A stretch of 64,000 bases of DNA. Origin: an uncultured Gemmatimonadota bacterium. GTDB lineage: Bacteria > JAAXHH01. The notes below the pieces were generated by a model. It was given only the letters and a program-made list of their open reading frames with translations. It was not told the DNA's origin and made no database searches. The position numbers were made by a program, and so were the translations under genes. Below are positions 13,327 to 61,076 of this stretch, in pieces (within the stretch, counting starts at the first letter, position 1; each line of letters begins with the position of its first letter). The stretch is from NCBI GenBank assembly GCA_951812955.1, contig OX638340.1:3136001-3200000 (forward strand), written 5' to 3'.

Positions 13327-13355
13327 CTAATGTATTTCCTAGGTTGTAGGGTTGC

Positions 13356-16367: not shown

Positions 16368-17036
16368 CTATTGCGGAAAATGTCGTTGATCGAACGTGAC
16401 GGACCAACTCCCTTCTGCCCAACTTTTTGGCGATAGCTTGACTGTTGTATCATTGATCCACTGCAATGCACCAAAGTACTTATCAAATACAAACTCGTCA
16501 GGCATATCCGTAACAACAAGGACCCTGTCTAGAATCTCTTTGGAACGGTTTCTGAGCTGGATGTAAATCCGGATCTCTTCGATTTCGTGTTCGACGAAGA
16601 CCTCGGCGACAAGGCGCCTTCCATTTCTCCACCAGACGCGTTTCCGCCAGGTCCACTGATTCACAAAGTTAAGGTCCAAGACCGCTTGCCGGGCTTTCTC
16701 GTATGGCTCAATGTCCCATCCATAAGCCCGCGTCACGATCTCGATGCCCCGGAATAACCAATTCAATGCCTTGTGTTTCTTCTCATATGCGCTGAGTTCA
16801 AAGAAGGCCAATGGATCATCCTTGATTTGTAGCTCGAGACATCCAAGCATGTCTAGTACATTCTGCCTTTTTGGCTGTGGCACGATAAAGACCGATATCT
16901 TCCATGCTTTTCCTGACTCACGAGGTGGTGTGAAATGCCTCTGGAACAAGGCGAGTACTGATCGTGTCTCATTTACAAATCGATGACTAGTCCACCACTC
17001 TAGTTTGGGTGCGTATAGACCAAACTGTCTTATCAT
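16368..17036 (-). CDS. hypothetical protein, candidate immunity protein for orphan Rhs-CT 2
   Basis: Low-GC 222-aa ORF directly 3' of the toxin tip at 17062. Confidence 0.4.
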   Translation of the reverse strand: MIRQFGLYAPKLEWWTSHRFVNETRSVLALFQRHFTPPRESGKAWKISVFIVPQPKRQNVLDMLGCLELQIKDDPLAFFELSAYEKKHKALNWLFRGIEIVTRAYGWDIEPYEKARQAVLDLNFVNQWTWRKRVWWRNGRRLVAEVFVEHEIEEIRIYIQLRNRSKEILDRVLVVTDMPDEFVFDKYFGALQWINDTTVKLSPKSWAEGSWSVTFDQRHFPQ

Positions 17037-18918: not shown

Positions 18919-19291
18919 GCGGCTGCGCCAGGAGGTGTTGTCGGGGTGACGCGGATGAGGCCGTGTTTACTCGGAGTAATTGGGCTTGCTAGGAGCGGAT
19001 AGTGAGTAAAGCACTTACCTAGTATGTCGCCTTTGCATGCGACGGGTCCAATCCGACCGGCTACCGTTGCGTCGAAGGCGGCCTGAAGCCACTCAGTCGT
19101 TCAGCCTTGTCCTAAATTGTCAGCATGATTTGCTGAGATTGGTTTTCTTGATTCTCTACAACAAATGTCTGACGCTCAATTCTCATTGTAGCATCTGTCT
19201 ATCCAACGTAGCAACTATGAACTCCATCGAATAAACCATTCAAACATCCAAGCCGACGTACCTACAGGACATTGTTAGTCCGTTCAGAAGC

Positions 19292-20170
19292 CTAAGGATC
19301 TATGTCGTCAAGGCGTATGTCTGTCGATCTAACCGATACCGTTCTCAATTTCGGACTGTCCCTGTTGCCAATTTCATATGTCCACTCTTTGTGCAGATAC
19401 ATCGTATCATGACCGGTTCCCATATCCAGTTCTTCAGTCTCACATCGCCCTACAAGCGTATCATCGGTTAACTCGTATTCATTTGAAAGCAGCCTGAAAT
19501 CTCGCGGATGCCCCTTATACTGCGTTAGCTGAATCCAATCAGCTACAAACTCGTCGACACTTTCTCGGCTTTGCTTGGGAACATGCTCAAGTTTGGGATA
19601 CTGCAATTGGTCATTATATGATACATACGCCGTTGTGTCATCTGGGGAATGGATTCTCTCCTCAAAACCGTTAAGTTTTAAAAACGCAAAGTGCTTTCCC
19701 AGATCCAACTCTTCGAAGGCTGGCCCATAATCTCTTGCTATAATTCCCAGTTTGTAAGGATAAGATTCTGGCGAATCAGGTGGGTAGGCCATATATACAT
19801 CTATCCCAATAAACTTCCGCTGTTGCAATTCACACCTGTAGTCTTTTATACGATCGAGTGTGGGAAACGACAGGCTCTCCAACTTCGTTAACGCTTCATT
19901 TATCGATCCGGGACGATCCTCTTGGATATTGTTGTTATGTTTTTCTTTTGCATTAACGGATTCATCGCGCTTGAACCAATTTCTGAGTTTAAGAATGGCT
20001 GTTTCATATTCAAAATACGCTACATAGTATCGACACAACTCAGCATATCGTCCTTCGTCTTTACTTTGATCCGATTCCTCGGCATACATATTCATTGTAA
20101 AAAAGAAGCACCATATAGATGCCACAGATAACCTTCTTGTTGAACTACTCATGTTGGTTCTTTTGTTCAT
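19292..20170 (-). CDS. secreted hypothetical protein, paralog of 20167..20979 (immunity-like)
   Basis: N-terminal hydrophobic signal. Shares DEFVADWIQLTQYKGHPRDFRLLSNEYELTDDTLVGRCETEEL with the neighbour. Low GC. Confidence 0.5.
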   Translation of the reverse strand: MNKRTNMSSSTRRLSVASIWCFFFTMNMYAEESDQSKDEGRYAELCRYYVAYFEYETAILKLRNWFKRDESVNAKEKHNNNIQEDRPGSINEALTKLESLSFPTLDRIKDYRCELQQRKFIGIDVYMAYPPDSPESYPYKLGIIARDYGPAFEELDLGKHFAFLKLNGFEERIHSPDDTTAYVSYNDQLQYPKLEHVPKQSRESVDEFVADWIQLTQYKGHPRDFRLLSNEYELTDDTLVGRCETEELDMGTGHDTMYLHKEWTYEIGNRDSPKLRTVSVRSTDIRLDDIDP

Positions 20171-20979
20171 GGAGACACACTCGGTACTGAAGCATTGTCA
20201 TCACTCGACGATTCGCGAGTTCTATCAAACAACTCATGAAGATCATTTCGTACTTCACGTGACAGCTCTTTCAAGACCGGCGTGCCTTCATTCGGTATTT
20301 TGTACTTCCATAGTTTATATACAACAGTCCCCTTTGGAATCAACGGTCCGTGGTGTAATTCGGCTGTTGTACAAATTCCCAAAACGTCGCCGTTTTCTAA
20401 CTGATACACGTTGGATAGTATCCTGAAAAAGTTGGGATGATCATTGAACTGCGTAAGATGAACCCAGTCCGAAACGAATTCCTCCATTTTTTTCGGATCT
20501 TCAACTGGCACGTCTTTACTACTGAAATCCAGCCAGTCGTCATATGAGAATTTAGTCAAGACCAGTCCGCCCCACGTGTTTTCTTCGTAAAACCCATAAA
20601 AGCGAACAATGTTAAATTGATCGTCTATGCCGATTTTGTACGGTTTACTATCGGATATCCCTCGTCGGACCATGAATACATCATAGGTCAGGAATCTTCG
20701 AGGTAACCTGCTAGTGGGGAAATTAAACACTTGTATGATTTCATGATCCATTGGTATAGGAATTTTACTGACCAGTGCTTCGTACATATCGGGGCGGTCC
20801 CAATTGGCGTCTTGTGATGAGTCCATCAGCGTGCGTTTCTTGTACGCGACGGTTGTCGCTAATTCAAAGAAGGCAACGTAGTGTCTAATTACCTGTGCTT
20901 TCACGCTGTATCCGATTTTCTGTTGGTCATCAGCATCGACCAACATCAGTCCCGCCAGAACACACCAGACCGCCCCCAT
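20167..20979 (-). CDS. secreted hypothetical protein, candidate cognate immunity protein of the main Rhs toxin
   Basis: Starts 16 nt after the rhs stop. Paralogous to 19292..20170 (EEFVSDWVHLTQFNDHPNFFRILSNVYQLENGDVLGICTTAEL). Confidence 0.5.
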   Translation of the reverse strand: MGAVWCVLAGLMLVDADDQQKIGYSVKAQVIRHYVAFFELATTVAYKKRTLMDSSQDANWDRPDMYEALVSKIPIPMDHEIIQVFNFPTSRLPRRFLTYDVFMVRRGISDSKPYKIGIDDQFNIVRFYGFYEENTWGGLVLTKFSYDDWLDFSSKDVPVEDPKKMEEFVSDWVHLTQFNDHPNFFRILSNVYQLENGDVLGICTTAELHHGPLIPKGTVVYKLWKYKIPNEGTPVLKELSREVRNDLHELFDRTRESSSDDNASVPSVSP

Positions 20980-20994
20980 TACTACTCACCTCCT

Positions 20995-23900
20995 CTACTG
21001 TTGCTGCTGTTTCTCAAGTTCTTCCCACTGTTTCCTGAACTTTTCCTGGGCTTCTTTAGCTCTTATTTCGTGAGGTTGATCGTCGTAATCGTACATAGCC
21101 TTCTCAAGCTCTGTTTGTTTGTAGAACTTCGTTGTGCTTTCTATCGATTCGAGTTTTCCTAGTGCTTCGGCAATGTGGAATAGTTCTTCTATCATAGTAC
21201 TCTCTACCATTCCTGCATTACCCTTAATCAACGCCTCATTGATATATGCCACTGAACCTGTTTGAGGGATTATCACCTCTTCTATTTCATCGATGGTTCT
21301 GGCGAAGGCAGGAAAATACCGGAAGTGTATCTGGGCAAGTCCACGGTACGTTTCACCGTCTGGAGCGATATCAAAAACGAATTCCTGAGTAGCTTTATGT
21401 ACATGGTTGTACAACTGATTCCCGATTTCTGTCTTCCTCAGGTTGGCGAAATAGCCCTCGAATCGTTTCCTTTCTACGATCGACAGATCAGATGAGAGTT
21501 TGATAACCCTCCCATCCGGGTCCACATATTTAAGCGGATTGTTGTTGGCATAGGCGTACGGGCTCCGTCCCGGATACTCGTCCTGCATGGGATCGGGCCG
21601 CAGGAATCGGCCTATATTGTAAGCATACGTCCTTGCAAGCATGTAGTCAAGGCCGGACTCGGCGTCTCTCTCGTGGCCGGTGAATCTGAAGTGCGTCTGC
21701 TCTGATCCGCCGGATGCCAGGATATCGCCGTAGGGCCAGTAATCGTAGGCGGCGGTGACCGTGCCTTCCTCATCCACGAGGCTTCTGGTGCTTCCGAGAT
21801 GATCGGTCAGGAAGTAGCTTGCGCTACTACCTGCTATCCGCGCTATTCTTCTGCTGCCCGCGTACACGTACCTTGCAGATAGCATCTGACCCGAGTATTC
21901 GGCCAAGACGGATCCGCCTGGTCCCCGCAGGTAGTAGGTGGTCACCGTGCCTACGGTCTTCTTCACGCGCCGTCTGTCGGGATCCATGAGATACCGTGCG
22001 CTGCCGTAGCCGGTGGTAAGCCCGCGGTAGTCATAGCTCACTGTATCAGTGCCCTTGCGCGTCATCCACCCGTTCGGATTGTAGGCGTAGTTCTGCCCAC
22101 CGGTGCCGGTGGTGCTGTCCAGCCTGTTGGGTGTGGAGGCGGACGTGTAGTTGTAGGTGAGCGTACTGGTACCTGTGACCAGGCTGGTGATATTTCCGTT
22201 CCTGTCGTAGGTGTAGTCCTGCGAGGTACCGCCCGACACGTCGAAGCCGGTGATCCGGTACAGGTCGTCGTAATCGTAGTCCGCGGTTATGGACGCGGCG
22301 CTACCGTGCCGGTACACCTGCCTGGTGACGTTGCCCACGTGGTCGTAGGTGAGGGCGGACTTGAACGTGCCGGCATAGTTCAGGTCTGTGACCCATTCCC
22401 GCGCGTTGTAGGTGTAGGATCCGGTGATGGCGCCGTCTCCCGCGACGTCGCCCACTCCGTCGCCCACAACGTGGGTGGCGATATTACCCGCGGCGGTGTG
22501 GGTGTAAGCAGCCAGGGTCTTGCCTTGCGCATCCCACACGCGGCTGAGCCGCCCGGCGCTGTCGTAGGCGTAGCGCGCCTGGCTGCCGTCGGGATATATG
22601 AGCCTGGTGATGCGCCCAGCCAGGTCGTGGACGTATTCTACCGTCTTGTCGCCGGTCAGGCCGTCGATGTCGACCTGCTTGACGCGCACGTTGCCGAGAT
22701 GGTCGTAGGCGTACAGGTAGCTGACCTCGGCGGTCGCGTCGGCGTCGGTGTTCTCCTCGACGTTGGTCAGACGCCCCTGGGTGTAGTTGGGTCCACCGCC
22801 TGCGGCATCACCGTCGTCGTAGGTCATGCGGCTTCGCCAGGAGGTGGTATCGCGTTCGAAGGGGTAGGAGCTTTCGGGATCTAGGGAGGCGAACGTGGCC
22901 GCTGCCTCGCCCACGCGCGTTACGCGCCCGAAGGCATCGTAGACGGTGTAGGTGATTTTCTCAGTGGCGTTGCCCGTGCCTGCAGCCTTCTGCCGCGCGT
23001 CCTGTGAAAAGCGCACGCGGCCCAGGTCGTCGTACTTGTAGCGGACTGGTCCGGCGGCATCGGGGTGATGCCTGGAGGTCATACGCCCCAGGGTGTCGTA
23101 GGCGTAGGTGGTGGTGGCGGTCAGCGGCCTGGCGGTAGTGCCTCTCTCTGGCATGGTGGTGGAGATGAGGCGATCCAGGGCGTCGTAGACAAAGGACGTC
23201 TTGTTGTTGCGGGTAGCAGCGTCCGTGCCCGCCGAGTCGGCGATGGCATAGCGCATGCGTCCGTAGGTGTCGTAGACGCTGGTGGTTGCCACCCCCTTCT
23301 CATCGTCTACGGTCTGGAACGATCGTCCCTGGCCGGACTCGATACCCCAGTTCCCGTAGCGGGTATCGACCGCATTATCCTGTGTGTGCCCGGGCGGGAT
23401 GACCTGCGATACCCGCAGGAGGGGATCGTCGTCGTAGGAGACTTGAGTGATGCGTTCTGCCGCGTCTGCGCGGGCCAGGGCGCCGTAGGTATGCGAAGGT
23501 GCCCGGTATACGGGACCAAGCAGGGTTTCGGGTTTATTGACGCGGTTGTAGTTCGTCTGGGCGACGATGTCGTTTGCGCCGGCGCTGGCGCGGGTCTGTA
23601 TCTGCCTGGCCAGGCCGTCGAAGGAGGAGGCCACCATCTCGGCGGCGCCGACGTAGAGGTTTGCGAGATATCCGTTTCCGGTCTCTCCCCGGGCCCTGAA
23701 GGCGGGCGTCCAGTTCGCGGGGACGGAGACCGAGGCCGACGCGCCCTTGAAGCGGGTCGTCTCATGACCGTAGAGCCACGCGTTCACGGTGCCCGTGGGC
23801 TGGAGCTCCATCTCCACGCGGGCCCAGGGCCATCTCCGGATGTATCCGGGCACGAAGGCCGAGGAGGCGGTCTGTCCGTCCACCCTGCTTTCAAGTTTTA

Positions 23901-40901: not shown

Positions 40902-41214
40902 CGGGGTTCCTTTCGGTTTCTCGTGGGGATGCGATAAACAAACATATCGTCGAATACCGTGGCTAACCTTATACCTTTACAAGAGTGTATTATAAGACCG
41001 CCTGAACGATACATCAAGGATCAATAGGAACATGTGTGATTGCTCGTTTGTGGGTTGAAGCGAACTGTGAGATTTGGTATATTGCGGGGATCGGATTCCA
41101 GATCATACGTCTGGACGGTTTGTCCTGATTTGTTGTAGTTCACTTTCCAGTTACATGAGGAGGCATGAACACACGGCATACCGCTGATTAGTAGCAGTTC
41201 GTGCCATTTCCCTT

Positions 41215-42189
41215 TTGTTAGCGGTACAAAAGATTACCTGCTGCATTAATACTGAAGTAAGGCAACTTATCTGTGAGGTGTTTGTGGACGAGTATTCCAA
41301 TTTAATCAAAGCAATCGCTACATTTCTGTGGCCATCTCTTACTTTTGTTGTCGTTCTCATCTTCAGAAGAGAGATTGGAGATGCAATTGAGCGCCTCAAA
41401 AAAGGCAAGTTGTTTGGTCAGGAGGTAGAGCTTCATAATAACCTAGAAACATTACATCAGTCAGTATCTCGGGCATCGGACGAGGTTGCGTCACTGCCGA
41501 AGCCGAAAGAACTGGAAAACGAAGACGATGGCCAGCACAGGGATAAAGAAGACGACGAAGTGATTCGTTCAGTTATACATGAAGCGTCGCATTCTCCTAA
41601 GGCGGCATTGATGATTTTGGCTGCCGAGATAGAAAAGGAAGCCAGGTTAATTCTTGCTAGTGTCGGCAAGATAGATGGACGGTCGCACATTCCAATAACT
41701 CAGGCCATTCGTGTCTTGGATTCACACTATGGACTACCGCGTTTTCTTTCCAGCAGCCTGAACCTATTTTGGGACACTCGCAACAAGTTAATCCATGGCA
41801 GAGACACCGAAGACGGGAATGTCCTCAGTGCGCTTGATTCTGGTATTACGATTTTGAAATCGCTGCAAGCCCTTCCAAGGCAGCTAAACATCGTTTACAA
41901 AACGGGGGTACCAATCTACTCAGATCCAGATTGCCAACACGAGATTACCAATGCGACTGGAGTGATTCTAGAAAGTCGATCCAATGAATATGCGCAGTTT
42001 TGTTACAGGATTTTCCCTACAACTCGTTCACATTTTGAGGAGGGTAGATCAGTAGCCTGGGAATGGAATATGAACGATATTTGGCAAGACGCTTGGTACC
42101 GAGATCCTCTAGAACCTGGGGGAGCGATTAAACTTGCCTGGAATTCTTCCGCAGAATTTATAGGCCGTCATTTAGACGACCTTGGATAA
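41215..42189 (+). CDS. membrane-anchored protein with C-terminal HEPN-like domain (Rx4H), Abi-like
   Basis: N-terminal TM helix IATFLWPSLTFVVVLIF. Helical domain with FWDTRNKLIHG (R-x4-H). Low-GC, at the island edge. Confidence 0.45.
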   Translation: MLAVQKITCCINTEVRQLICEVFVDEYSNLIKAIATFLWPSLTFVVVLIFRREIGDAIERLKKGKLFGQEVELHNNLETLHQSVSRASDEVASLPKPKELENEDDGQHRDKEDDEVIRSVIHEASHSPKAALMILAAEIEKEARLILASVGKIDGRSHIPITQAIRVLDSHYGLPRFLSSSLNLFWDTRNKLIHGRDTEDGNVLSALDSGITILKSLQALPRQLNIVYKTGVPIYSDPDCQHEITNATGVILESRSNEYAQFCYRIFPTTRSHFEEGRSVAWEWNMNDIWQDAWYRDPLEPGGAIKLAWNSSAEFIGRHLDDLG

Positions 42190-42658
42190 CTTGCTTAGTT
42201 TCACAAACAAGAAAATCCTCTGGTGCAGACTGAACCTCTGCCGGTCATAATGGGTTTGGTATACTGAGATTGAAACCCCGGTACACCGTTGAAAACCGTT
42301 CCTTTACGTATTTCGTGTTTAACTTGTTATATGTACGATTTAGGCATGTATTTGGAATGTTAATAAGTTAGCTGGTAGTCCTTCGAATCGGTATGTCAGA
42401 ATATACCATACATCCTTGCCAAAGTTGTTAATAAGTATTGTCTGTGTGGCAGTATAATTCAGTTTAAGGCGGCGTATCCACCAATAGCCTTACATTGCCG
42501 TGAAAAACAGGCTCATAAATTACGGATCAAGATTAAGAGGTATTCGGTTTTGAAGCTATAGTGAACTGATTGATATGAACGAAATTCGCATAGGTAAAGC
42601 AGATTACCGGAAGCAGTCATCAGAATAGGTTTACTACTACACAACGACTGTAGAATGA

Positions 42659-43378
42659 ATGGATTCGACGGGTCAATCGGACTGGTTAATGGCAAAATTG
42701 GACGCACACTACAAGGGACACCGTAGCCGACTCCGTGAGCGGTTCCAAAAGAGTGGATTTGGTGGATTCGCTGAGCACGAGGTCATTGAGTTACTGTTGA
42801 CGATGGCCATGACCCGTTCGGACGTAAAACCACAGGCCAAGATGTTGCTTGAGCGTTTTGGCAGTCTGCGAGGCATTTTGGATGCACCAGTATCCGAACT
42901 GCAGTCGGTAAAGGGAATTGGTGAGATTTCAGCCATACTACTGAAAGTTATCCGTGAATCGGCGACGATGTATTTATTGGAAGCATCAAAAGAAACAGAA
43001 GTCCTCAGCGATCCGGAGCGGCTCAGCAATTTCTGGCGCATGCGAATCGGCCATCTTAAGAACGAAGTGTTCGCTGTCGCTTACCTTGATTCAGCTTATC
43101 GGTTGTTGCGTAATGGCGTAGAAACGCTTCAGGAAGGTACGATAGACCGTGCAGCGGTGTACCCGCGCCGCGTCGTGGAGGCGGCACTTAATCGCCAGGC
43201 GGCGGCCCTCGTGCTCGCGCACAACCATCCGAACGGCGATGTCGAGCCGAGCGAACAGGACAAGATGATAACACGCGCCGTCACGCTTGCAGCCGAAACC
43301 ATCAGCATACGAGTCGTCGATCATCTAATAGTGTCGGCCTCGGAGACTTTCAGTTTCAGAAAAGCGGGACTGCTATGA
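42659..43378 (+). CDS. radC: RadC-like JAB/MPN domain protein
   Basis: JAMM motif LAHNHPNGD, ExnS region. N-terminal HhH-like segment (GIGEISAILL). Confidence 0.8.
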   Translation: MDSTGQSDWLMAKLDAHYKGHRSRLRERFQKSGFGGFAEHEVIELLLTMAMTRSDVKPQAKMLLERFGSLRGILDAPVSELQSVKGIGEISAILLKVIRESATMYLLEASKETEVLSDPERLSNFWRMRIGHLKNEVFAVAYLDSAYRLLRNGVETLQEGTIDRAAVYPRRVVEAALNRQAAALVLAHNHPNGDVEPSEQDKMITRAVTLAAETISIRVVDHLIVSASETFSFRKAGLL

Positions 43379-46239
43379 GTATCGCGCCAGCGATCCAGAA
43401 GCACTTTCCTGAGCTTATCTACAGCCAGAGGGAGGTCGTCGGCCATCTCGACGGACCGTTGCTGGTGATTGCGGGACCGGGATCGGGCAAGACTTTCAGC
43501 ATTGTCCTGAGGGCCTTGAATCTTATGTTGCTGGAGAAGGCCGAGCCAAATGAGATTCTGCTCTGCACCTTTACCGAAAAAGCTGCCTACGAGATGCGGG
43601 ACCGATTGACTGCAGCGGCCCGTAAAGTGGCGTACACGGGTGACCTTTCCGAACTGAAGGTCTCGACCATACACGGCTTCTGCCACCGGATGCTCGCCCA
43701 ACACCGGCACAAGACTGAACTCGGGCACAACTACGAAACGCTCGACGAATTGACACAACTTCTCTTCATATTCGAGCACTTCGACGAGATCATCGGTCCG
43801 CCTATCGACGACCGTTTTCTCACTCGCTGGAAAACGCGTTGGACAGCCATTGAAGGCGTGCGTGGCTATTTTGACAAGATCACGGAAGAATTGGTAGACT
43901 CTCGCTGCCTTACGGCATCCTCCGACCCATTTTTGTCGGTGATTGGTACTGCGTATCAACACTACGAACAAGCCCTGCAAGTGGCCAACAGGATTGACTT
44001 TGCCCACCTGCAGAGAACCGTATACGGCCTGCTGGACAACTCTACGGACACCGCTGCCATTTCCACCGACGTGCGCTATCTGCTGGTAGACGAGTATCAG
44101 GACACGAACTACATACAAGAGCGGATTCTCCTGAAGTTGGCCGAACCGGGCAACAACTTATGCGTCGTAGGGGATGAGGATCAAAGCCTCTACCGTTTCA
44201 GGGGCGCGACTGTCCGTAACATCCTGGAGTTCGCACAGCACTTTCAGGAATGCAGGATCGCCAGGTTGACAACAAACTACCGGTCTCACCGCTCAATTGT
44301 AGAGCGCTACGACCATTGGATGGAGTCGGCTGACTGGTCCGATCCAGCGGGAGGTTCATACCGACACGAGAAAACCATCGTTGCTGATCCCATGGCGCAA
44401 CATCCTGACTATCCCTCTGTCATAAGCATTTGGGGAAGGAACAGGCACGATGAAGCCGACCGGTTCGCCGATCTCGTCGAGTTCCTTAAAGAGAGCGAGG
44501 TAATAGTAGATTACAGTCAGATCGCATTGTTGCTGCACAGCGTGCGCGAACAACACAGCGGCCCTTATCTGGAGGCGTTGCGGCGCAGGGGCATCCCCGC
44601 GTTCTGTCCTCGGGCGCGCGTCTTCTTCCATATACCGGAGATTCGCTATCTGATCGCCTGTTATGCCATTTTGTTCGGCTGGTACGGCGACCGGCGCGGT
44701 GATCTCATAGGCGTCGTGAAGCAACTTGCTGAGTACGTGGACGAGGCCATTATCGACTTAAGCAAGCGCTTCGTGTCCACCGACCCGCTCGCGGAGAGAC
44801 TTCAGAGTTGGACCGGCGAGATCGCGGCGCTTCAGGAAGAAGAGACGCTCGACCTGCGGCCGGCCGATTATTTCTATAGACTGATCGCACTTGATCCATT
44901 CCGGAAGGCTGTCCGAAACGAAAACACCGCACGCAACTTAGCCATTTTCTCCGAACTTCTGACCATTTTTCAAAGCTATTATCATTTTCCGGTCATTACG
45001 TACAGGAATCGCGAGTACATCCGATTTCACTTCTTCAACAGCTTCTTGCGATTTCTCCACGCTGGCGGAATCAACGAGTACGAGGATCCGGACAAGCCGT
45101 TCCCTCGGGGCCACGTGCAGGTGATGACTGTCCATCAGGCCAAGGGCCTTGAGTTCCCTGTAGTCGTTGTCGGGTCCCTTTCGGTGTCTTTAAGCAGCCC
45201 CAAGCAAATCGATCGCAACCTTATGCCATTCTATCACCGCCCGCCCTTCGAGCCGGAGGACCGGATCACGCTCTTCGACCGCATGCGGTTGCACTACGTA
45301 GCGTTTTCACGACCGGAAAGACTGCTGGTACTTACCGCGCACGAACAACCGAAAGACTACTTCTCACCCATTTGGCAAGGGCTTCCCCAGTGGCCGTACA
45401 TCCCTAAGGAAACGCTGGCCAGCCAATCCTTCGAGCGACACGAGCGTATGCCGATCAAAAAGACGTATAACTTTACGGGTGATCTCAAGGTTTACGAAAC
45501 ATGCCCTCGCCAATATCAGTTCTTCCGCGAATACGGCTTTGCACCCTCCCGTTCCGCGGAGATGTTCTTTGGACTGCTCGTACATCAGTCTATCGAGGAA
45601 ATCCACCGTATCGCCCTTGACGGCCTAATCCATACGCTGGACGACGCGCGTGTCGGCGAGTTGTTTGAAAGAACTTACCAGTTTCTAAATCTCACCGATA
45701 GGCGTCCCATTGGCGATAGAGCGAAGGAGTTGGCTTTAAAGCAGGTATTGAACTATTATCGACAGAACCAGGATGGATTGAATCGGATCATCGAGACGGA
45801 GGTGGATGTATCGCTGGAGAAAGACGGGTACATACTCGCAGGAAAGGTCGATCTTCTTCTCGGCGACGACGGCAAGTTGGAACTATTGGATTTCAAAACC
45901 TCGCCGCGTCCGGCAAGCACGCCCGAACTAATCGCCGCATACGGAAGACAACTCTGCACCTATGCGCATATACTGGAGCAACGGCACGAAAAACATGTGG
46001 ACCGGTTGCTACTGTATTGGACAGCAGAGAAATCACGGGACCAGGCGCTCATGGTCCTGCCGTTACGCCCGGAATCGATAGAGGAAGCGGGCCGATACTT
46101 CGACGAGACCGTAAAACGGATTCAGACAGGTAAATTCGTGGTAAACACACCTCCCGAAGCGAAAGTCTGCCAGGAATGCGACCTGCAGATGCTGTGTCAC
46201 GCGGACGGTGTTATAGAATGGGCGGAGGCAGTCGCTTGA
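43375..46239 (+). CDS. UvrD/PcrA-family SF1 helicase fused to a C-terminal Cas4/AddB-like PD-(D/E)xK nuclease with a 4-Cys cluster
   Basis: Walker A AGPGSGKTFSIV. UvrD motifs (LLVDEYQDTN, VMTVHQAKGLEF). C-terminal C-x5-Y..D..GKVDLL..LELLDFKT and CQECDLQMLC. ATGA overlap with radC. Confidence 0.8.
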   Translation: MSIAPAIQKHFPELIYSQREVVGHLDGPLLVIAGPGSGKTFSIVLRALNLMLLEKAEPNEILLCTFTEKAAYEMRDRLTAAARKVAYTGDLSELKVSTIHGFCHRMLAQHRHKTELGHNYETLDELTQLLFIFEHFDEIIGPPIDDRFLTRWKTRWTAIEGVRGYFDKITEELVDSRCLTASSDPFLSVIGTAYQHYEQALQVANRIDFAHLQRTVYGLLDNSTDTAAISTDVRYLLVDEYQDTNYIQERILLKLAEPGNNLCVVGDEDQSLYRFRGATVRNILEFAQHFQECRIARLTTNYRSHRSIVERYDHWMESADWSDPAGGSYRHEKTIVADPMAQHPDYPSVISIWGRNRHDEADRFADLVEFLKESEVIVDYSQIALLLHSVREQHSGPYLEALRRRGIPAFCPRARVFFHIPEIRYLIACYAILFGWYGDRRGDLIGVVKQLAEYVDEAIIDLSKRFVSTDPLAERLQSWTGEIAALQEEETLDLRPADYFYRLIALDPFRKAVRNENTARNLAIFSELLTIFQSYYHFPVITYRNREYIRFHFFNSFLRFLHAGGINEYEDPDKPFPRGHVQVMTVHQAKGLEFPVVVVGSLSVSLSSPKQIDRNLMPFYHRPPFEPEDRITLFDRMRLHYVAFSRPERLLVLTAHEQPKDYFSPIWQGLPQWPYIPKETLASQSFERHERMPIKKTYNFTGDLKVYETCPRQYQFFREYGFAPSRSAEMFFGLLVHQSIEEIHRIALDGLIHTLDDARVGELFERTYQFLNLTDRRPIGDRAKELALKQVLNYYRQNQDGLNRIIETEVDVSLEKDGYILAGKVDLLLGDDGKLELLDFKTSPRPASTPELIAAYGRQLCTYAHILEQRHEKHVDRLLLYWTAEKSRDQALMVLPLRPESIEEAGRYFDETVKRIQTGKFVVNTPPEAKVCQECDLQMLCHADGVIEWAEAVA

Positions 46240-48276: not shown

Positions 48277-51120
48277 ATGGCAAAAGCCGTCATCAATTAC
48301 GACAAGGAGTTGCCGGAGATTCAAGATCGGCGACCTTGGGAAAAGCCCGGATCCTACTTGGTCAAGGACGAAGAGGAGCCAACGGGTTGGCGGGAGGATA
48401 CTTCCGGCCGTCGCCCGACCAAGCTTCTGCTGGTGCCTAAAATCCGTAAGGCCGTTGATGCGTGGCGAGACAGTGGCTACAAAGGAGCATCGGAAGTCTC
48501 CCTGCGCTTGTTTGAGTATTGGTTCCATGAGGATCACAAGGTCAACGGATTCGATACGCCGTTCCGGTACTACTTCTGCCAACGAGAAGCTATAGAAACG
48601 CTGGTCTGGTTGGTGGAGGTCGCCTGCCAGCAGGACGCGATAGCGCTTATAGAGAAATATGGATCGTTCTATCAACTGGACCTTCTATCGAAAAACATTG
48701 AGTTTCAGACTACCATAGATGGCAGGCGGCAGATTCGTCGATACATACCAGAACTGGAACAACATGGCATACAGGACTTACCGTCCAAAGAATTGCGTCG
48801 CTACGCCTTCAAGATGGCCACTGGGTCGGGTAAAACCTGGGTGATGGCCATGATGGTCGTCTGGTCGTGTTTCCACAAGCAGCGCGTACCTGGTTCGAAA
48901 CTTTCCACGAATTTCCTTATCGTAGCCCCCAATGTGATCGTCTATCAGCGGCTGGAGAAGGACTTTGCAAACAACCGGATATTTAATGAGTTACCATTGA
49001 TCCCGCCGGAATGGAAAGGCAATTTTAACCAAAAGGTGATTTTGCGCGGGGAAGTCGCTGAGCCCGACCCGTCGGGGAATCTGTTTCTTACGAATATCCA
49101 TCAACTGTACGAATCTCGCGATCAGAAGTGGACCCCGGGAAACGCCGTCGAAGCCCTCCTGGGCAAGACCCCCGCGCCAGATCTCGCGGCATCTGGTCAG
49201 CGGACCATGCTGGAGTGCGTGAAGTATCTAAAAGACCTCGTCGTGCTAAATGACGAAGCCCACCACGTCCATGATGACGACCTATCCTGGAATCAATCTC
49301 TGCTGGCTATTGATAATGCGTTGCCGAAGGGACTCTGCGCTTGGCTCGACTTTTCAGCCACGCCGAAAGACCAGAACGGCATGTACTTCCCTTGGACCGT
49401 TGTGGACTACCCGTTGGCACAGGCCGTGGAGGATAGAATCGTCAAAGCCCCACTCATCGTAACCAAGGGGGATGATCCCAATCAGCCGACCGAAGATCCC
49501 GATGGGATCACTAAGGAGAACGTAGCACAGAAATACGGTTACTGGCTACAGGCCGCCGCGCAACGTTGGAAGGAACACTGGCAGATTTACAGGAAGCTCG
49601 GGACCAAGCCTGTCCTCTTTGTCATGGCTGAAAAAAACATCTATGCAGATGCCCTGGGAGAGTATCTGTGGAAGACTAAGGAATTTGGTTTCAAGGAATC
49701 CGAGGTACTCGTTATCCATACGGACAATACGGGTGAAGTTCGGAAAGGGGATATCGAGAAAGCCCGGAAGGCTGCAAGAGACATCGATAAGGCAGAGAGC
49801 AAAATAAAAGTGATCGTCAGCGTTATGATGCTGCGCGAGGGTTGGGACGTTCGGAATGTTACAGTGGTACTGGGTTTGCGCCCCTATACTGCGAAAGCCG
49901 AGATATTGCCGGAACAGGTGATCGGTCGCGGACTTCGTCTGATGACCCAGGTAAGCCCCGACCAAACGCAGACCCTTGAGGTGCTCGGAACGCGTAACCT
50001 GCTCGAAGTGCTACGCGATCAACTTGAGGCTGAGGGCGTCGGAGTAGCGAGTACGAAGGACAATACGCCACTGCCAGTCATCATTGAGCCGGTGCAGGAA
50101 CGACTGAATTACGACATCGCCATTCCAATCACGAAACCGAGTCTAACACATGATTTCCGCAAACTGTCCACCGTTGATGTGCCATCGCTGGAAGCGATTT
50201 ACGATCAGGAAGAACTGGCCGAACCGTTTCGGGTCGGTCTGAAGATGGAATTCGCAATGACGGAGACCGAGGTTCATCAAGCCGACGTTGCGTTGCAACT
50301 CCGACCTGCCCAGGAGCTTTTGGCGAGCATCGCCAACAAGACGGCTGAGCGCGCCAATCTGACTAACTGTTTTGCGGAATTGTATCCCATTATTCAGGAT
50401 TATGTCGAGAATCGTTGCTTTGGACATAAAATTGAACTGTCAGATGAAACCATTCGCTCCCATCTCGAAAGATTGGAGTTGCAGAATGGGATTGCCGGAT
50501 ACATGGCACGTAAGCTTTCGACGCTTTCCATTAAACGGCATGCAGTCGAGTTCGAGAAAGAGGATTACCGTCTTTCCCTGACCAGACCCTTTAGCTGGCG
50601 ACGCAACTTGCCACCAATGCAGGCGTACAAAACGATTTTCAACTTCGTGGCCACCTACAATGACTTTGAGCGAAGCTTTGCGACGTTCTTGGATGGAGCG
50701 GAAGATGTGGTGCGCTTTGCGGCACTTGGCACGACAGAACAAGGACGTTCCGGTACGACATTTCACATCGACTACCTGAAACCGACTGGGGCTATCGGAT
50801 TCTACTATCCAGACTGGGTAGTCGTTCAAAAGGCCAAAGATAACGAAGTGAACTGGATCGTTGAGACCAAGGGCCGAGTCTGGGAAGGAACCGCCGAAAA
50901 AGATGTCGCAGCGCGAAACTGGTGCAAGCGGGTAAGCAACGCCACGGGAAAGCCTTGGAAGTACACCCGCATCAACCAGTCAGAGTTTACGGATGAACTC
51001 GCGACGTTTCGCGCACTGATTGTAGATAAGGCGATTAAAACCTCAGTTCAACGACACGAAAACATGCAACCGGTAACGCAGGAAGAAATCCGCCGCTGGA
51101 AAGAAGAGGGCCGTCGCTGA
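48277..51120 (+). CDS. res: Type III restriction endonuclease Res subunit (SF2 helicase + C-terminal nuclease)
   Basis: Walker A MATGSGKTWVMA. DEAH box LNDEAHHV. Motif VI QVIGRGLR. C-terminal D..VETKG nuclease motif. Adjacent to mod. Confidence 0.8.
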   Translation: MAKAVINYDKELPEIQDRRPWEKPGSYLVKDEEEPTGWREDTSGRRPTKLLLVPKIRKAVDAWRDSGYKGASEVSLRLFEYWFHEDHKVNGFDTPFRYYFCQREAIETLVWLVEVACQQDAIALIEKYGSFYQLDLLSKNIEFQTTIDGRRQIRRYIPELEQHGIQDLPSKELRRYAFKMATGSGKTWVMAMMVVWSCFHKQRVPGSKLSTNFLIVAPNVIVYQRLEKDFANNRIFNELPLIPPEWKGNFNQKVILRGEVAEPDPSGNLFLTNIHQLYESRDQKWTPGNAVEALLGKTPAPDLAASGQRTMLECVKYLKDLVVLNDEAHHVHDDDLSWNQSLLAIDNALPKGLCAWLDFSATPKDQNGMYFPWTVVDYPLAQAVEDRIVKAPLIVTKGDDPNQPTEDPDGITKENVAQKYGYWLQAAAQRWKEHWQIYRKLGTKPVLFVMAEKNIYADALGEYLWKTKEFGFKESEVLVIHTDNTGEVRKGDIEKARKAARDIDKAESKIKVIVSVMMLREGWDVRNVTVVLGLRPYTAKAEILPEQVIGRGLRLMTQVSPDQTQTLEVLGTRNLLEVLRDQLEAEGVGVASTKDNTPLPVIIEPVQERLNYDIAIPITKPSLTHDFRKLSTVDVPSLEAIYDQEELAEPFRVGLKMEFAMTETEVHQADVALQLRPAQELLASIANKTAERANLTNCFAELYPIIQDYVENRCFGHKIELSDETIRSHLERLELQNGIAGYMARKLSTLSIKRHAVEFEKEDYRLSLTRPFSWRRNLPPMQAYKTIFNFVATYNDFERSFATFLDGAEDVVRFAALGTTEQGRSGTTFHIDYLKPTGAIGFYYPDWVVVQKAKDNEVNWIVETKGRVWEGTAEKDVAARNWCKRVSNATGKPWKYTRINQSEFTDELATFRALIVDKAIKTSVQRHENMQPVTQEEIRRWKEEGRR

Positions 51121-51542
51121 TGGCCACTGTGATCGATGCTTCGGTGATGGTAGCCTTCCTGTTACGCAACGAAGATAATAGTCGTTACGCACGACGAATA
51201 GTCGAAAGACTTGATAGGGAAGAACTGATCGTGCCGAGGATTTTCTGGTATGAAGTTCGTAATGTTCTATTGAAGGCGAAACGGAACAATCGAATTGGGC
51301 AACAGGATTTTGAAGATTGCCTGATTCAACTCACGGATGAGATTTCACCGACAGAGGATGACAGAAACGACGAAGATAGGACGTTGGACCTCGCACTACG
51401 TCATAACCTTACGGTATATGACGCAAGCTATCTCGAGACGGCCATCAGACGCAAAGCTAGCTTGGCGACCTTCGATCGAAACCTCGCGGATGCGGCCTCT
51501 AGCGAAAGAGTTGAGAATCCGGCAGTCGGTTTTAGCGCTTAG
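51120..51542 (+). CDS. PIN domain ribonuclease (VapC-like), no adjacent antitoxin
   Basis: VIDASVMVAFLL (Asp5), EVRN (Glu), TVYDASYLE (Asp), TFDRNL (Asp). Start overlaps the res stop. Confidence 0.75.
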   Translation: MATVIDASVMVAFLLRNEDNSRYARRIVERLDREELIVPRIFWYEVRNVLLKAKRNNRIGQQDFEDCLIQLTDEISPTEDDRNDEDRTLDLALRHNLTVYDASYLETAIRRKASLATFDRNLADAASSERVENPAVGFSA

Positions 51543-57115: not shown

Positions 57116-57991
57116 ATGGATAAACGATTTTCAAACATAGATTTTCCAATGGCGCAGCTAGAGGATGAACTCGCCAGAGATCATGCTGTGTTCAAGGACT
57201 TGCTTTCAACTTCTATGGCGGAAATGGTAAACCAGAATCCGCAGCTTTTTTCGCTTAAAGTCAACAACATCAATAGCGTAAAGATTTACTTCGAGTTGGG
57301 ACGATCATTACCCAAAGGAGTATTATTGGATTTCCTTCTAAAACTTCAGCAACATGTAGAAGAAGAAATGTGTTCCTCTATAGCGACTCAAACTGGAAGA
57401 CCAATATCAATAGATGAGTTAAGCGGTGTTCTTACAGTTCCACAATCAGACTACCAAATACTGCGTGATTTGCAGGAGTATTATAAATCAAAGTTAGTTA
57501 AGAACATTCAAATTGGTATGTTGGGTATGATAAGCAGAAGTATCCCTGATACTCAACAAACACATCCTGATATTGAGATCGTTATCGACCTAAAAGATGT
57601 AGGAGGAACAAGGCGGTTTTTGTACGTCGAATCTCAGGGTAAAGTACAGAAAGATCTAGTGGTCAAGCTCACATCAGTGACCCTCGATACAAACGTTTTA
57701 ATGGAATGGTGGAAAGAGCAAAAAAAGGTAGAAGTAGTAGAGAATCTTCTGACAATGGGAGAGCAATTCGAAATTGATCTTGCGGTCACAAGTAGAATCC
57801 GCGATGACGTATTTCGTCCACCCCTGTCTGACAGGATTAATGAGCTACCCAGTCTGAATGTTCAAGAGATTGGGTCTGTTATACGAATCGGGCACTGGAA
57901 GGTAGGTGTAGACGCAGTGGGCGACACGGAGTTCAGGGAATTTGTAGATTCCAATGAAGTTCAACAGAAGATTAAATATTTGATAAAATGA
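57116..57991 (+). CDS. hypothetical protein, low-GC, possible C-terminal PIN-like segment
   Basis: VTLDTNVLMEWW resembles the first PIN motif. Otherwise unrecognised. Confidence 0.35.
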   Translation: MDKRFSNIDFPMAQLEDELARDHAVFKDLLSTSMAEMVNQNPQLFSLKVNNINSVKIYFELGRSLPKGVLLDFLLKLQQHVEEEMCSSIATQTGRPISIDELSGVLTVPQSDYQILRDLQEYYKSKLVKNIQIGMLGMISRSIPDTQQTHPDIEIVIDLKDVGGTRRFLYVESQGKVQKDLVVKLTSVTLDTNVLMEWWKEQKKVEVVENLLTMGEQFEIDLAVTSRIRDDVFRPPLSDRINELPSLNVQEIGSVIRIGHWKVGVDAVGDTEFREFVDSNEVQQKIKYLIK

Positions 57992-58211: not shown

Positions 58212-59585
58212 GTGGACACATTGACGGTTATTCTCTTCATCGCACTACTGGTCAGCCTTGGTCTGATAGCCGTGCTACTGTTCTGGAGCCAGAAGGCTAA
58301 CGCGCGGATCAACACGTTGAGCAGCGACAAGTCGGGCATGGAGACCGAACTGGGCTTGGCGCACGAGCAACTGGCAGAAGTACGCGAGCAACTGGCCGAA
58401 ACGAGGAAATCACTCGAAGAGGCCCGCAGGTTGGAAGTCGATCGGGCAAAGCTGCAACAGCAGCTCGCAAACGCGGAAGAACGCATCGGCGATCGTGACG
58501 AGGTGGAGAAGCGGTTTAAGGATACGTTCAAAGCTTTGTCGTCGGAGGTCCTGAAATCGCAGCAAGAGTCGTTCAAGGAGAGCGCCGAGGAAACGTTGAA
58601 AGCCCGGCAGGAGGCGGTTGAGAAGCTGGTAAAACCGTTGTCGGAGAAGATCGAGACGCTGGACAAGGCGCGAGCTAAAAACGCTGGCGAATTCCAGACC
58701 CAGATTTCGAACCTCATGCGGACCAACAAGGAGTTGGCCGAAGAGGCCCAGGCGCTGTCAAACGCGCTGAAGCGGCCCGACGTTCGCGGAAAGTGGGGCG
58801 AGACCCAGCTCGAGCGTGTGCTTGAACTGTCCGGACTGCGGAAGGACATCGATTTCACGGTGCAGGACAGCTTCAATAACGACGGAGAGCGCATACGGAC
58901 CGACGTGATCGTCCATCTGCCGCAGGACCGGACGGTGATTCTCGATTCCAAGGTGTCGCTGGCCGCCCTGATGGAAGCCTTTGAGACGGACGATGATGAA
59001 GCCAGGTCGGCAGCCTTCGATCGCCACGTAAGCCAGGTTAAGACCCACGTCGACTCTCTCTCAAAAAAGGAATACTGGAACGTCCTGGCCTCTACCCCCG
59101 ACATGGTGGTGATGGTCATGCCCGAATTCGCCTTCCTTCCCGCCATCGAAAGGGAGCCCGGCCTGACCGAACGGGCGCTGGAGAAAAACGTGATCATCGT
59201 CACGCCCCCGGCCCTGCTGGCGCTGCTCAAGGCCGTGGAGATGTCCTGGCAGCAGATCCGGGTCGCGGAGACCGCGCGGGAGATCAGCGACCTGGGCAAG
59301 GAGATGTACGAGCGCCTCGCGGTGTTCGCGGGCCACTACGTCAACGTGGGCAATTCGCTTCGGCAGGCGATTGAGCGGTACAATCGAAGTGTCGGATCAT
59401 GGGATACCCGGGTCGCCACGTCCGCCATGCGGTTCCCCGAACTGAACGTCCCCGTCACGCGGGAACTGCCGGAAGTATCTCCTGTGGATGAGATTCCCCG
59501 TACGATCCAGAAACTGACGGACGGTAAGGTGGAAGAAGGCCAGGCTGAAGACGTGGACGGGCGCGTCGTTGATAACGATGGATAG
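58212..59585 (+). CDS. rmuC: DNA recombination protein RmuC
   Basis: N-terminal TM + long coiled coil. RmuC core (RPDVRGKWGETQLERVLELSGL, DVIVHLPQDRTVILDSKVSLAA). GTG start with GGAG. Confidence 0.8.
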   Translation: MDTLTVILFIALLVSLGLIAVLLFWSQKANARINTLSSDKSGMETELGLAHEQLAEVREQLAETRKSLEEARRLEVDRAKLQQQLANAEERIGDRDEVEKRFKDTFKALSSEVLKSQQESFKESAEETLKARQEAVEKLVKPLSEKIETLDKARAKNAGEFQTQISNLMRTNKELAEEAQALSNALKRPDVRGKWGETQLERVLELSGLRKDIDFTVQDSFNNDGERIRTDVIVHLPQDRTVILDSKVSLAALMEAFETDDDEARSAAFDRHVSQVKTHVDSLSKKEYWNVLASTPDMVVMVMPEFAFLPAIEREPGLTERALEKNVIIVTPPALLALLKAVEMSWQQIRVAETAREISDLGKEMYERLAVFAGHYVNVGNSLRQAIERYNRSVGSWDTRVATSAMRFPELNVPVTRELPEVSPVDEIPRTIQKLTDGKVEEGQAEDVDGRVVDNDG

Positions 59586-59822: not shown

Positions 59823-61076
59823 GTGAAAAACCGGATCATGCTGTCTAATATGAAACAAAAGGCAGATACCCGGCTGGGGCGTCTTATCGCGTTGACGGGA
59901 GCCCGTCAGACCGGCAAGACTACCCTGGTACAGGCCGGGTTTCCGGAATACGACTTCGTTTCTCTCGAAGACCCGATCGCGCGTCCGGACTTTATCGCGC
60001 TGTCAGCGGCACAATGGCAACAACGCTATCCCAGGGTCATACTTGACGAAATCCAGAAGGCGCCGTCAATTGTCGAATCCGTTAAGGCGGTATACGACCG
60101 GTATCCCGACAACCGCGCCATCCTGCTTGGATCCAGCCAGATCCTGTTGATGGAGCAGATACGGGAGAGTCTGGCCGGGCGTGTAACGCTGCTGGAACTG
60201 TATCCGCTGACGTTACCGGAACTGCTGACCGATTCCTGGGACGATCCGGTCATGGATTCCCGCCTTGTCCGGTACCTTGAAACGGGGGATCTTGATATAC
60301 TTACATCGGGAATACCCCAGCAGAGCGCCAGGTACGCCCGGGCGGTAGACCACTTGGATCACTACCTGGAATTCGGCGGCATGCCGGTAGTATCCGATGT
60401 CACGCTGTCCCGGGAAGACAGGTACGGGTGGCTTCGGGACTACCTCCGTACATATCTCCAGCGGGATCTACGCGATCTGGCCAATCTCCGGGATCTCGTC
60501 CCCTACGTACGCATGTTGAAGGCATTGGGTGAGTTGGCTGGCGGCTTGCTGAACGTGAATGAACTGGCCCGTCTCGCTGGCGTGACGCACAGGACTATCA
60601 AACGTTTCGTCACCTACCTTGAAATCAGTTATCAGGTCATCCAGTTGCAACCGTGGTTTAGAAATCGAAGCAAACGACTGTCCAAAGCAGCGAAAATACA
60701 CTTTCTCGATCCGGGCATTCAGCGGGCTTTGCTCAACCGCAGAGGCCAGCCCACAGGAACCGAATTTGAAGGCGCCATCATTGCGGAGGTTTACAAACAG
60801 GTCAGGAACGCAAGGTTGCCCGTTGACTGTTATCATCTTCGTACGTTTGACGGACGGGAAGTCGATCTGCTGATCGAAACCGAAGCGAGCTATGTACCTA
60901 TAGAGATAAAATCCAAAGACCGTGTCTCGCATGCCGACGCGCGTCACCTGCGCCGGTTGAGCGAGATCCTGGACAAACCCGTCCTGCACGCGCTGGTGCT
61001 ATCCAACGATCCACACATCCGAAACCTGGGAGATGGCGTCACGGGACTCCCCGCGGGATGGGCGCTTTGTGGATGA
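59823..61076 (+). CDS. AAA+ ATPase with DUF4143-type C-terminal domain
   Basis: Walker A GARQTGKTTL. Architecture typical of the widespread archaeal-ATPase/DUF4143 family. Confidence 0.7.
   Translation: MKNRIMLSNMKQKADTRLGRLIALTGARQTGKTTLVQAGFPEYDFVSLEDPIARPDFIALSAAQWQQRYPRVILDEIQKAPSIVESVKAVYDRYPDNRAILLGSSQILLMEQIRESLAGRVTLLELYPLTLPELLTDSWDDPVMDSRLVRYLETGDLDILTSGIPQQSARYARAVDHLDHYLEFGGMPVVSDVTLSREDRYGWLRDYLRTYLQRDLRDLANLRDLVPYVRMLKALGELAGGLLNVNELARLAGVTHRTIKRFVTYLEISYQVIQLQPWFRNRSKRLSKAAKIHFLDPGIQRALLNRRGQPTGTEFEGAIIAEVYKQVRNARLPVDCYHLRTFDGREVDLLIETEASYVPIEIKSKDRVSHADARHLRRLSEILDKPVLHALVLSNDPHIRNLGDGVTGLPAGWALCG

Follow-up and report, generated by a model that had tools for sequence, protein, structure and literature searches.

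A predicted membrane-anchored HEPN-fold protein with a conserved C-terminal beta domain, a candidate solo RNase

It is a recent finding that single HEPN proteins such as HepS, Tha, HEC-08 and Esos are complete immune systems in themselves, and only in very few cases is it known what such solo HEPN proteins sense and how they are kept silent when no antitoxin is present. Here we describe a gene on the forward strand of a 64,000-nt stretch of DNA (the window) from an uncultured Gemmatimonadota bacterium (contig OX638340.1). It spans positions 41284..42189 and is very probably a real gene for a HEPN-fold protein anchored by a transmembrane (TM) helix; all residue numbers refer to its 301-aa product, read from the GTG at 41284. 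As somewhat more likely than not, and ahead of the other readings considered below, we take this product to be a putative solo, membrane-tethered and conditionally activated HEPN RNase of the conflict, abortive-infection or toxin type.

Proteins that combine a TM segment bearing a WP signature with a DUF4145-like HEPN domain were described computationally in 2013 (Anantharaman, Makarova, Burroughs, Koonin & Aravind 2013, PMC3710099). The window family shares with that group a WP signature in the TM segment (here an invariant L15-W16-P17 inside the sole hydrophobic segment), a predicted inner-membrane location and the occurrence of HEPN genes in Vibrio integrons. DUF4145 is matched by only one of 40 aligned members (E = 0.17), and HEPN_Apea, RiboL-PSP-HEPN and Swt1-HEPN all score better. 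No V. cholerae protein (the 2013 exemplar is gi 153825856) is named among the matches listed, whether the search was seeded with the window protein or with its V. vulnificus homolog, and the main text of the 2013 paper does not mention a conserved C-terminal beta domain. The combination of a WP-type TM helix (WP-TM) with HEPN is already known from that paper; what is added here is the conserved C-terminal domain (C-domain), a HEPN plus C-domain module with variable N-termini, and a one-gene integron cassette.

Among proteins studied at the bench, HepS would, by analogy, serve best as a functional model of a solo HEPN protein. As described (PMC13043305), this 'HEPN solo' abortive-infection protein of the Salmonella prophage Gifsy-1 combines sensing and action in one polypeptide, is kept inactive by its quaternary structure and is turned by a phage protein into an anticodon nuclease; the same source states that HEPN proteins act as dimers in which opposed R-x4-6-H motifs form the active site. 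Like it, the window protein is one HEPN protein that comes without a gene for a partner or an inhibitor. However, HepS is soluble and prophage-encoded, has neither a TM helix nor a C-terminal beta domain, and shows no sequence relationship to the window family. HEC-08 (Payne et al. 2024, 10.1101/2024.01.29.577857) joins a DUF3644 HEPN domain to C-terminal zinc-ribbon domains and loses defence when the motif histidine is mutated. It likewise is a single-gene HEPN protein with an extra C-terminal, putatively nucleic-acid-binding module, and DUF3644 weakly matches five of the 40 members here, but it lacks a TM helix, carries another C-terminal domain and sits within Hma systems. Esos, from a chromosomal integron of V. 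cholerae, protects against phage with an abortive or growth-arrest phenotype (10.1101/2024.07.02.601686). Like the window gene's homolog in V. vulnificus, it is a one-gene cassette for a HEPN-like protein. The two are likened by description only, and Esos is described with a HEPN-like domain but nothing further that could be detected. Tha (PMC11087260) is a solo HEPN defence protein that we count among the nearest validated analogues. None of HepS, Tha, HEC-08 and Esos is described with the TM helix or the C-domain of the window family. In the CoCoNuT type IV restriction systems (PMC11090510) the pairing of HEPN with an OB fold is read as pointing to RNA targeting; there, as in the present family, small beta-barrel domains (OB, CSD or SmpB-like) accompany a HEPN RNase. 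The HEPN-MNT toxins (TTHA0636 1wwp, SO_3166 5yep, 8xdj, 7ae2) are more distant: they are soluble, measure about 120-140 aa and are neutralised by an adjacent MNT protein, whereas the window family has no MNT or conserved neighbour and has additional TM and C-terminal domains.

A search of 5.8 billion proteins returned 324 homologs at E <= 1e-3, and the best 120 of these, to which statements on individual homologs refer, are 44-70% identical to the window protein over the full length. With so many homologs and such strong conservation, a chance open reading frame (ORF) was rejected. Where the source annotations of the best 120 name the protein at all they say 'hypothetical', and none carries a precomputed Pfam domain. 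Genome matches fall in Gamma-, Beta-, Alpha- and Zetaproteobacteria, Nitrospinae/Nitrospira, Latescibacterota, Victivallales, Ignavibacteria, Verrucomicrobiia, Acidobacteria, Planctomycetaceae and one Peribacteria (candidate phyla radiation) metagenome-assembled genome (MAG); the family is present in more than 10 phyla, and this patchy spread is typical of horizontally moving accessory genes. Pfam has no model for the family, and searches of the Protein Data Bank (PDB) by single sequence and by profile gave nothing meaningful and no HEPN protein. An alignment of 40 sequences, to which all statements on invariance and column identity refer, has a mean column identity of 57% and 35 invariant positions. 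The AlphaFold2 model built on it has a mean predicted local distance difference test score (pLDDT) of 86.6 and resolves four parts, which gives the following features.

41284..42189, + strand: coding sequence of 301 aa with GTG start and TAA stop (homolog N-termini and lengths, database protein P0001, ORF listing)
41305..41361, + strand: single TM helix, residues 8-26, with invariant L15-W16-P17 (W-P at 41329-41334), predicted N-out/C-in (hydropathy, K/R distribution, invariant columns)
41365..41490, + strand: juxtamembrane helical region, residues 28-69, with invariant R37, G45, E49 and L57 and the consensus IGRLKKGKLLGQEIEL (alignment, model, column identity 0.65)
41491..41529, + strand: variable acidic linker, residues ~70-82, of low confidence (pLDDT, column identity)
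41530..41868, + strand: predicted HEPN-fold helical domain, residues 83-195, with helices 83-103, 105-127, 138-149 (insert), 154-170 and 177-195
41632..41634, + strand: invariant E117 in the second HEPN helix (105-127), the predicted counterpart of the conserved acidic residue of HEPN active sites (alignment, model, position rule of PMC3710099)
41779..41796, + strand: R166-N-K-L-I-H171, the R-x4-H motif (alignment, homolog motif matches, helix boundaries)
41869..42186, + strand: C-terminal beta domain of ~105 aa, residues 196-301, only weakly OB-fold-like

An R-x4-H motif by itself is no evidence for a HEPN enzyme: it occurs in 51% of shuffled versions of the window protein (RNxxxH in 2.7%), and a second, unconserved copy lies at residue 143. 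The motif within FWDTRNKLIHG (residues 162-172) stands above chance because R166 and H171 are invariant, because F[WLF]xxR[NS]xxxH is found in 113 of the 120 best homologs and because the predicted fold agrees with it; N167 is kept in at least 90% of the aligned sequences. In the model R166 falls in the final part of helix 154-170, and the loop behind that helix opens with H171. The 2013 paper gives a rule for the secondary-structure positions of the acidic residue, the arginine and the histidine of HEPN domains, and in the predicted structure E117, R166 and H171 occupy exactly the positions of the HEPN active sites described there.

The TM helix and the juxtamembrane region ahead of this domain are conserved to a similar degree. 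Residues 8-26 have a Kyte-Doolittle 19-residue mean of 2.0, with no other segment of the window protein above 1.6, and the highest hydropathy outside the TM segment in any of the 40 members is 1.55. K and R together average 0.4 ahead of the helix versus 4.3 in the 15 residues behind it, and in the model a helix at residues 2-26 covers the hydrophobic segment; the conserved WP is predicted to kink it. The acidic n-region and the K/R residues behind the helix suggest an N-out/C-in topology, with a short N-terminus outside and the HEPN and C-terminal domains predicted to be cytoplasmic; a Sec signal peptide was rejected on the same acidic n-region and the positive charges behind the helix. Mean column identity is 0.68 for the TM helix, 0.65 for the juxtamembrane region, 0.69 for the HEPN domain and 0.66 for the C-domain. 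The variable linker falls to 0.31 (over residues 70-92) and has a pLDDT below 50 at residues 71-80. Because the TM helix is as conserved as the catalytic domain, it would be more than a passive anchor. A profile of the N-terminal WP-TM and juxtamembrane module returned 16 short fragments and nothing else.

The last third of the protein is a domain of its own. Modelled alone, the C-domain is predicted to be all-beta with a pLDDT of 92.9, and its invariant residues comprise P245, T247, V257, W259-E260-W261, W271-Y272, A285 and E291-F292-x-G294-R295. It has no match in Pfam or PHROG, and a Foldseek search against the PDB gave nothing significant, the top match being a mitochondrial single-stranded DNA-binding protein at E = 0.5. 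The domain is possibly OB-like; we do not call it an OB fold outright, since no significant Foldseek match was obtained in the PDB. It is the hallmark of the family. An exhaustive search of 1.84 billion cluster representatives with a hidden Markov model profile of the C-domain found 608 representatives at E <= 1e-3 and 464 at E <= 1e-10, with the domain at the C-terminal end in nearly all matches listed. A motif screen recognised a HEPN R-x4-H upstream of it in 114 of the 149 top representatives, the others being mostly fragments or motif variants.

Where the upstream region is present, HEPN usually precedes the C-domain whatever the N-terminus, which is a WP-TM in the majority and otherwise another TM segment or a soluble form. 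In P0156 (496 aa) the pair follows a PIN_8 domain, in P0145 (868 aa) a calcineurin-like phosphoesterase (Metallophos) and TPR repeats, and in P0137 and P0177 (~630-660 aa) a ~500-aa N-terminal domain of unknown type. Because the pair recurs behind differing N-termini, the conserved evolutionary unit is HEPN plus C-domain, with the WP-TM as the commonest of several N-terminal modules. Such a unit behind varied N-termini is the usual pattern of defence effectors.

The original prediction had proposed an N-terminal TM helix followed by a helical domain with a HEPN-type R-x4-H motif. The single hydrophobic segment with its positive-inside charge pattern bears out the first element. The second is borne out by the invariant R166 and H171, by E117 in helix 2 and by a structure prediction in which residues 83-195 form a helical bundle with R, H and E at the canonical positions. 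The description of what follows the TM segment as a helical domain holds for this bundle but missed the separate, conserved beta domain that makes up the last third. The start of the gene had also been misplaced. The uninterrupted ORF spans 41215..42189 (+) in the ORF listing, and 41215 is an upstream in-frame TTG. The true gene is 41284..42189 (+), 301 aa, with a GTG start, because the N-termini of the homologs align at V24 of the long ORF (lengths ~291-308 aa), because the database protein P0001 is 100% identical to the window protein at a length of 301 aa, and because a GAGG, read directly from the sequence, stands in front.

The gene has no fixed company. Clustering of the ORFs within 5 kb at 39 compared loci found nothing shared but the gene itself, the next commonest neighbour occurring at four loci, and when the 141 immediate neighbours were scanned with Pfam, 108 families turned up, each in three proteins at most. 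Flanks of up to 500 bp at 31 loci contain neither a peptide (25 aa or longer) nor a nucleotide element that is conserved, near-identical genomes apart, and the flanks in the window show neither tandem repeats nor a credible Rfam match (SNORA33, at 31.6 bits versus a gathering score of 74, was put down to chance). With flanks devoid of a conserved ORF, nucleotide element, tandem repeat or Rfam match, there is no protein or RNA antitoxin.

In V. vulnificus the gene (L001, 8001-8876) is bracketed by attC-like repeats at 7855-7985 and 8879-9006 and so forms a 1024-bp one-gene integron cassette in the chromosomal superintegron, which holds 21 attC-like repeats; the integrase gene intI adjoins infC-rpmI-rplT and is followed by cassettes on the same strand. 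In V. vulnificus the superintegron array that carries the homolog (L002-L005) also contains a HEPN_AbiV cassette and a CcdA/CcdB pair (for example L002:1574-2251 and 813-1375), together with repeated glyoxalase, NUDIX, RDD and GNAT cassettes. Elsewhere a 69%-identical homolog lies between an integrase with HigBA and the operon of a type II cyclic-oligonucleotide-based anti-phage signalling system (CBASS; SMODS-ThiF-JAB-SAVED), a 61%-identical homolog (L013) adjoins a BamHI-type restriction-modification (R-M) pair, and a Nitrospinae copy (L007) lies amid ParE and BrnT/BrnA modules. In the two loci with the 69%-identical homolog, the type II CBASS directly downstream is complete (L049:9219-14070 and L050:1859-6710), with a SMODS cyclase, a ThiF-like E1, a JAB protein and a SAVED effector present as two ORFs; HigB/HigA and a tyrosine integrase lie upstream.

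In the window itself the gene stands out by composition. Its GC content is 0.456 and its GC at third codon positions (GC3) 0.43, versus a GC3 of 0.76-0.83 in the host genes on either side (a cupin, a xylose-isomerase-like TIM barrel and an 824-aa ORF). GC falls at ~40900, right behind the cupin gene, and the HEPN gene is the first of the low-GC stretch, preceded by an upstream region of 382 nt with a GC of 0.44. Downstream follow genes for RadC, a UvrD-helicase/PD-(D/E)XK fusion, an N6/N4 methylase (type III Mod), a type III Res and a PIN-domain ORF. The low GC of the gene and of its upstream region, and its place directly upstream of the radC-helicase-RM cluster, are therefore as first described. 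The gene has been acquired horizontally, as its foreign composition indicates; the window contains no attC-like hairpin or intI, and a search for att sites of the island, for a terminator and for an attC site gave no convincing candidate. The non-coding elements around the gene are these.

41055..41083, + strand: candidate sigma-70-type promoter in the AT-rich upstream region, TTGAAG-17-TATATT with TG, a weak consensus match
41275..41278, + strand: GAGG, Shine-Dalgarno-like element 5 nt ahead of the GTG (direct sequence reading)
42190..42658, no strand: AT-rich non-coding spacer of 469 nt between the HEPN gene and radC, GC 0.39 (composition and feature scans)

The promoter scan gave six promoter-like sites versus 3.6 +/- 1.9 expected, an excess that is not significant on its own, and scans of the spacer (42190..42658) found no terminator-like, attC-like, tandem-repeat or Rfam feature.

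Taken as a conditionally activated solo RNase, the protein might work as follows. It would pair up as other HEPN enzymes do, the E117/R166/H171 sites of two protomers joining into a single composite RNase centre, metal-independent. Since there is no antitoxin, the enzyme would have to be held inactive within its own protein, through its oligomeric state or through the C-terminal domain. One candidate cue is a membrane disturbance passed on through the unusually conserved WP-TM and juxtamembrane segment; another is a ligand, either nucleic acid or protein, that the aromatic-rich and possibly OB-like C-domain binds. This domain could equally serve as a substrate-recognition module. Once active, the enzyme may cleave cellular and/or invader RNA (tRNA, rRNA, mRNA) at the inner face of the membrane, and the ensuing translation arrest would stop phage production or growth. 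The gene would act alone, without the neighbouring cluster. Support for this reading comes from the R-M, CBASS and toxin-antitoxin neighbours, the foreign GC3, the integron cassette, the varied N-termini and the E/R/H triad, and an anti-phage defence role of the gene is plausible.

Several points weigh against it. No activity, toxicity or phage phenotype is recorded for any member, all being annotated as 'hypothetical protein', and structure, dimerisation, autoinhibition and trigger are matters of prediction or inference. The profile check against HEPN families that the original prediction had suggested gave weak matches (HEPN_Apea in 15 of 40 members, RiboL-PSP-HEPN in 13, Swt1-HEPN in 8, and the DUF3644 and DUF4145 models already mentioned; MAE_28990 also appears, and the best E of any member is 8.4e-4). 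The window protein's best Pfam match, HEPN_Apea, scores 13.1 bits versus a gathering score of 24.4, and none of the 40 members reaches the gathering score of any HEPN Pfam model. The PADLOC, NCBIfam and PHROG libraries hold no match to the window protein, and tblastn found no copy in a collection of 72,556 plasmids or in one of 50,697 phage records. In at least 10 of the 149 top C-domain representatives (~7%; 18 non-matching ones were aligned) the R and/or the H of the motif is lost while the C-domain is kept, so that RNase catalysis would not be universally required in the wider family. The P0005 homolog lies among ordinary genes, some other loci look ordinary as well, and PADLOC matches (1e-10) among the 141 immediate neighbours amount to a handful, a raw count without a background rate.

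A bolder extension, which we consider distinctly unlikely, would make HEPN plus C-domain a sensor-effector module that is complete in itself and so far undescribed (~600 clusters at 50% identity), the C-domain a new nucleic-acid-binding fold and the WP-TM members membrane sentinels. The C-domain might then detect invader RNA or single-stranded DNA, or dock the nuclease on a translation component, and RNA cleavage would be coupled, through the WP-TM and juxtamembrane segment, to an event at the envelope, for example injection of a phage genome or depolarisation of the membrane. In the HEPN literature compared, no membrane-level activation is described as the trigger of a HEPN system.

Whatever the trigger, the family seems a useful one: it is widespread, small (~300 aa), easily synthesised and membrane-anchored, and its extra domain is conserved and has no significant match in the solved structures and curated families searched. 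If active, it would constitute a new defence or toxin family where databases now say 'hypothetical protein', would define a new HEPN-associated domain, and would make it possible to test whether, as suggested in 2013, membrane signals are passed to RNases by WP-type TM helices. Should it turn out to be merely another Abi-like toxin, the result would be ordinary, yet an annotation gap would be filled.

The reading of the gene as a conflict RNase has to be set against one that invokes no phage. The protein may be a stimulus-dependent, membrane-associated RNA-decay or dormancy factor that senses the envelope or stress through the WP-TM, degrades RNA at the inner face of the membrane and slows growth. 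This is the role proposed in sections 14-15 of PMC3710099 for WP-signature TM+HEPN proteins and integron HEPN cassettes, and it agrees with the strong conservation of the TM helix and juxtamembrane segment, with the lack of defence neighbours at many loci and with the lack of copies in the phage and plasmid collections. It also gains from MAGs of Candidatus Sulfotelmatobacter, where TM-less variants lie in a stress operon, between dnaK and dnaJ. However, the patchy distribution over phyla, the foreign composition and the integron cassette fit accessory conflict genes better, and the closest homologs adjoin R-M, CBASS and toxin-antitoxin modules. We regard this explanation as unlikely. Its mechanism overlaps with that of a conflict RNase, and the two differ only in trigger and benefit.

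The Sulfotelmatobacter variants deserve a description of their own. They are TM-less HEPN plus C-domain proteins of 218 aa (L044:1506-2162, L045:5980-6636 and L046:5980-6636), encoded between dnaK (HSP70, E=7e-262) and dnaJ. Their stop codon precedes the start of dnaJ by 6 nt, and next comes a PDDEXK_3 gene. In one acidobacterial lineage, a predicted HEPN RNase-like gene is thus found inside a heat-shock operon.

The weight could also lie on the other domain. In such a scheme the C-domain would be the main functional part, binding a nucleic acid or ligand or acting as an unrecognised enzyme, and HEPN would serve mainly as a non-catalytic scaffold for RNA binding or dimerisation. The C-domain is indeed conserved on a par with HEPN (0.66 vs 0.69), its W-E-W, W-Y and E-F-x-G-R motifs are kept where R-x4-H is degraded, and in P0146 (440 aa) four TM segments are combined with a C-domain and the HEPN motif is absent; HEPN families that have lost R-x4-H and are inferred to be non-catalytic are reported in PMC3710099. 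Set against this are the invariant E/R/H triad, with the motif intact in the window protein and in those 113 of the best 120 homologs, the lack of any significant structural or sequence match pointing to an enzyme, and the fact that many entries without HEPN are metagenomic fragments. We judge a C-domain-led function to be improbable.

Motif-degraded members that retain a TM helix and the C-domain signature include P0209, P0219, P0228, P0236, P0238, P0174, P0258 and P0140, with VRSQILR, VKASIIH, QREQLVD and VENSLLQ as examples of the degraded motif. Part of the family may do without HEPN catalysis, or else these members are in decay.

Closer to home, the protein could be an accessory part of the adjacent RadC/UvrD-PD-(D/E)XK/type III R-M cluster that works only together with it, being directly adjacent on the same strand and within one shared low-GC stretch. 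We find this barely credible. RadC, helicase, Mod and Res are not conserved neighbours at the 39 other loci, the gene stands alone in its integron cassette, and in the window the 469-nt AT-rich spacer and a GC3 of 0.43 versus 0.55-0.65 set it apart from the cluster. Because of this spacer and GC3 gap, we conclude that the HEPN gene was acquired separately from the RadC/helicase-nuclease/type III R-M genes, at the edge of the same integration hotspot. The suggestion that it is independent of the cluster is upheld by the same observations, from the 39 loci without a retained neighbour to the one-gene cassette in V. vulnificus. We give as little credence to the idea that the protein is the toxin of a conventional toxin-antitoxin pair (for example HEPN-MNT) with an overlooked antitoxin: adjacent to the gene neither an MNT nor any other conserved ORF (25 aa or longer) was found, the flanks hold no conserved nucleotide element and no tandem RNA repeat, and the integron cassette holds this ORF only.

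Some further features of the window lie outside the gene. The 954-aa UvrD/REP helicase with a C-terminal PD-(D/E)XK (Cas4-like) nuclease (43375-46239, +) has a start codon overlapping the stop of radC (43375-43378). The overlap suggests that RadC and the helicase-nuclease are a translationally coupled pair, encoded upstream of the type III R-M genes. At the far end of the cluster, the stop codon of the type III Res gene (48277-51120) is where a 140-aa PIN-domain ORF begins (51120-51542, +; Pfam PIN, E=7e-19). With it the low-GC genes end, host composition resuming at ~52200; no VapB-like partner was seen, and the ORF may encode a solo PIN nuclease that has joined the R-M operon. A second patch of low GC (0.41 at 57-58 kb) contains a 291-aa ORF without a Pfam match (57116-57991, +), followed by an RmuC-family gene (58212-59585) and an AAA_14/DUF4143 ATPase gene (59823-61076), and may be another small island. 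Sharp GC dips (0.43-0.52 vs a background of 0.60-0.65) at ~12000-14000, 16000-17000 and 19000-22000 appear to be several more horizontally acquired patches.

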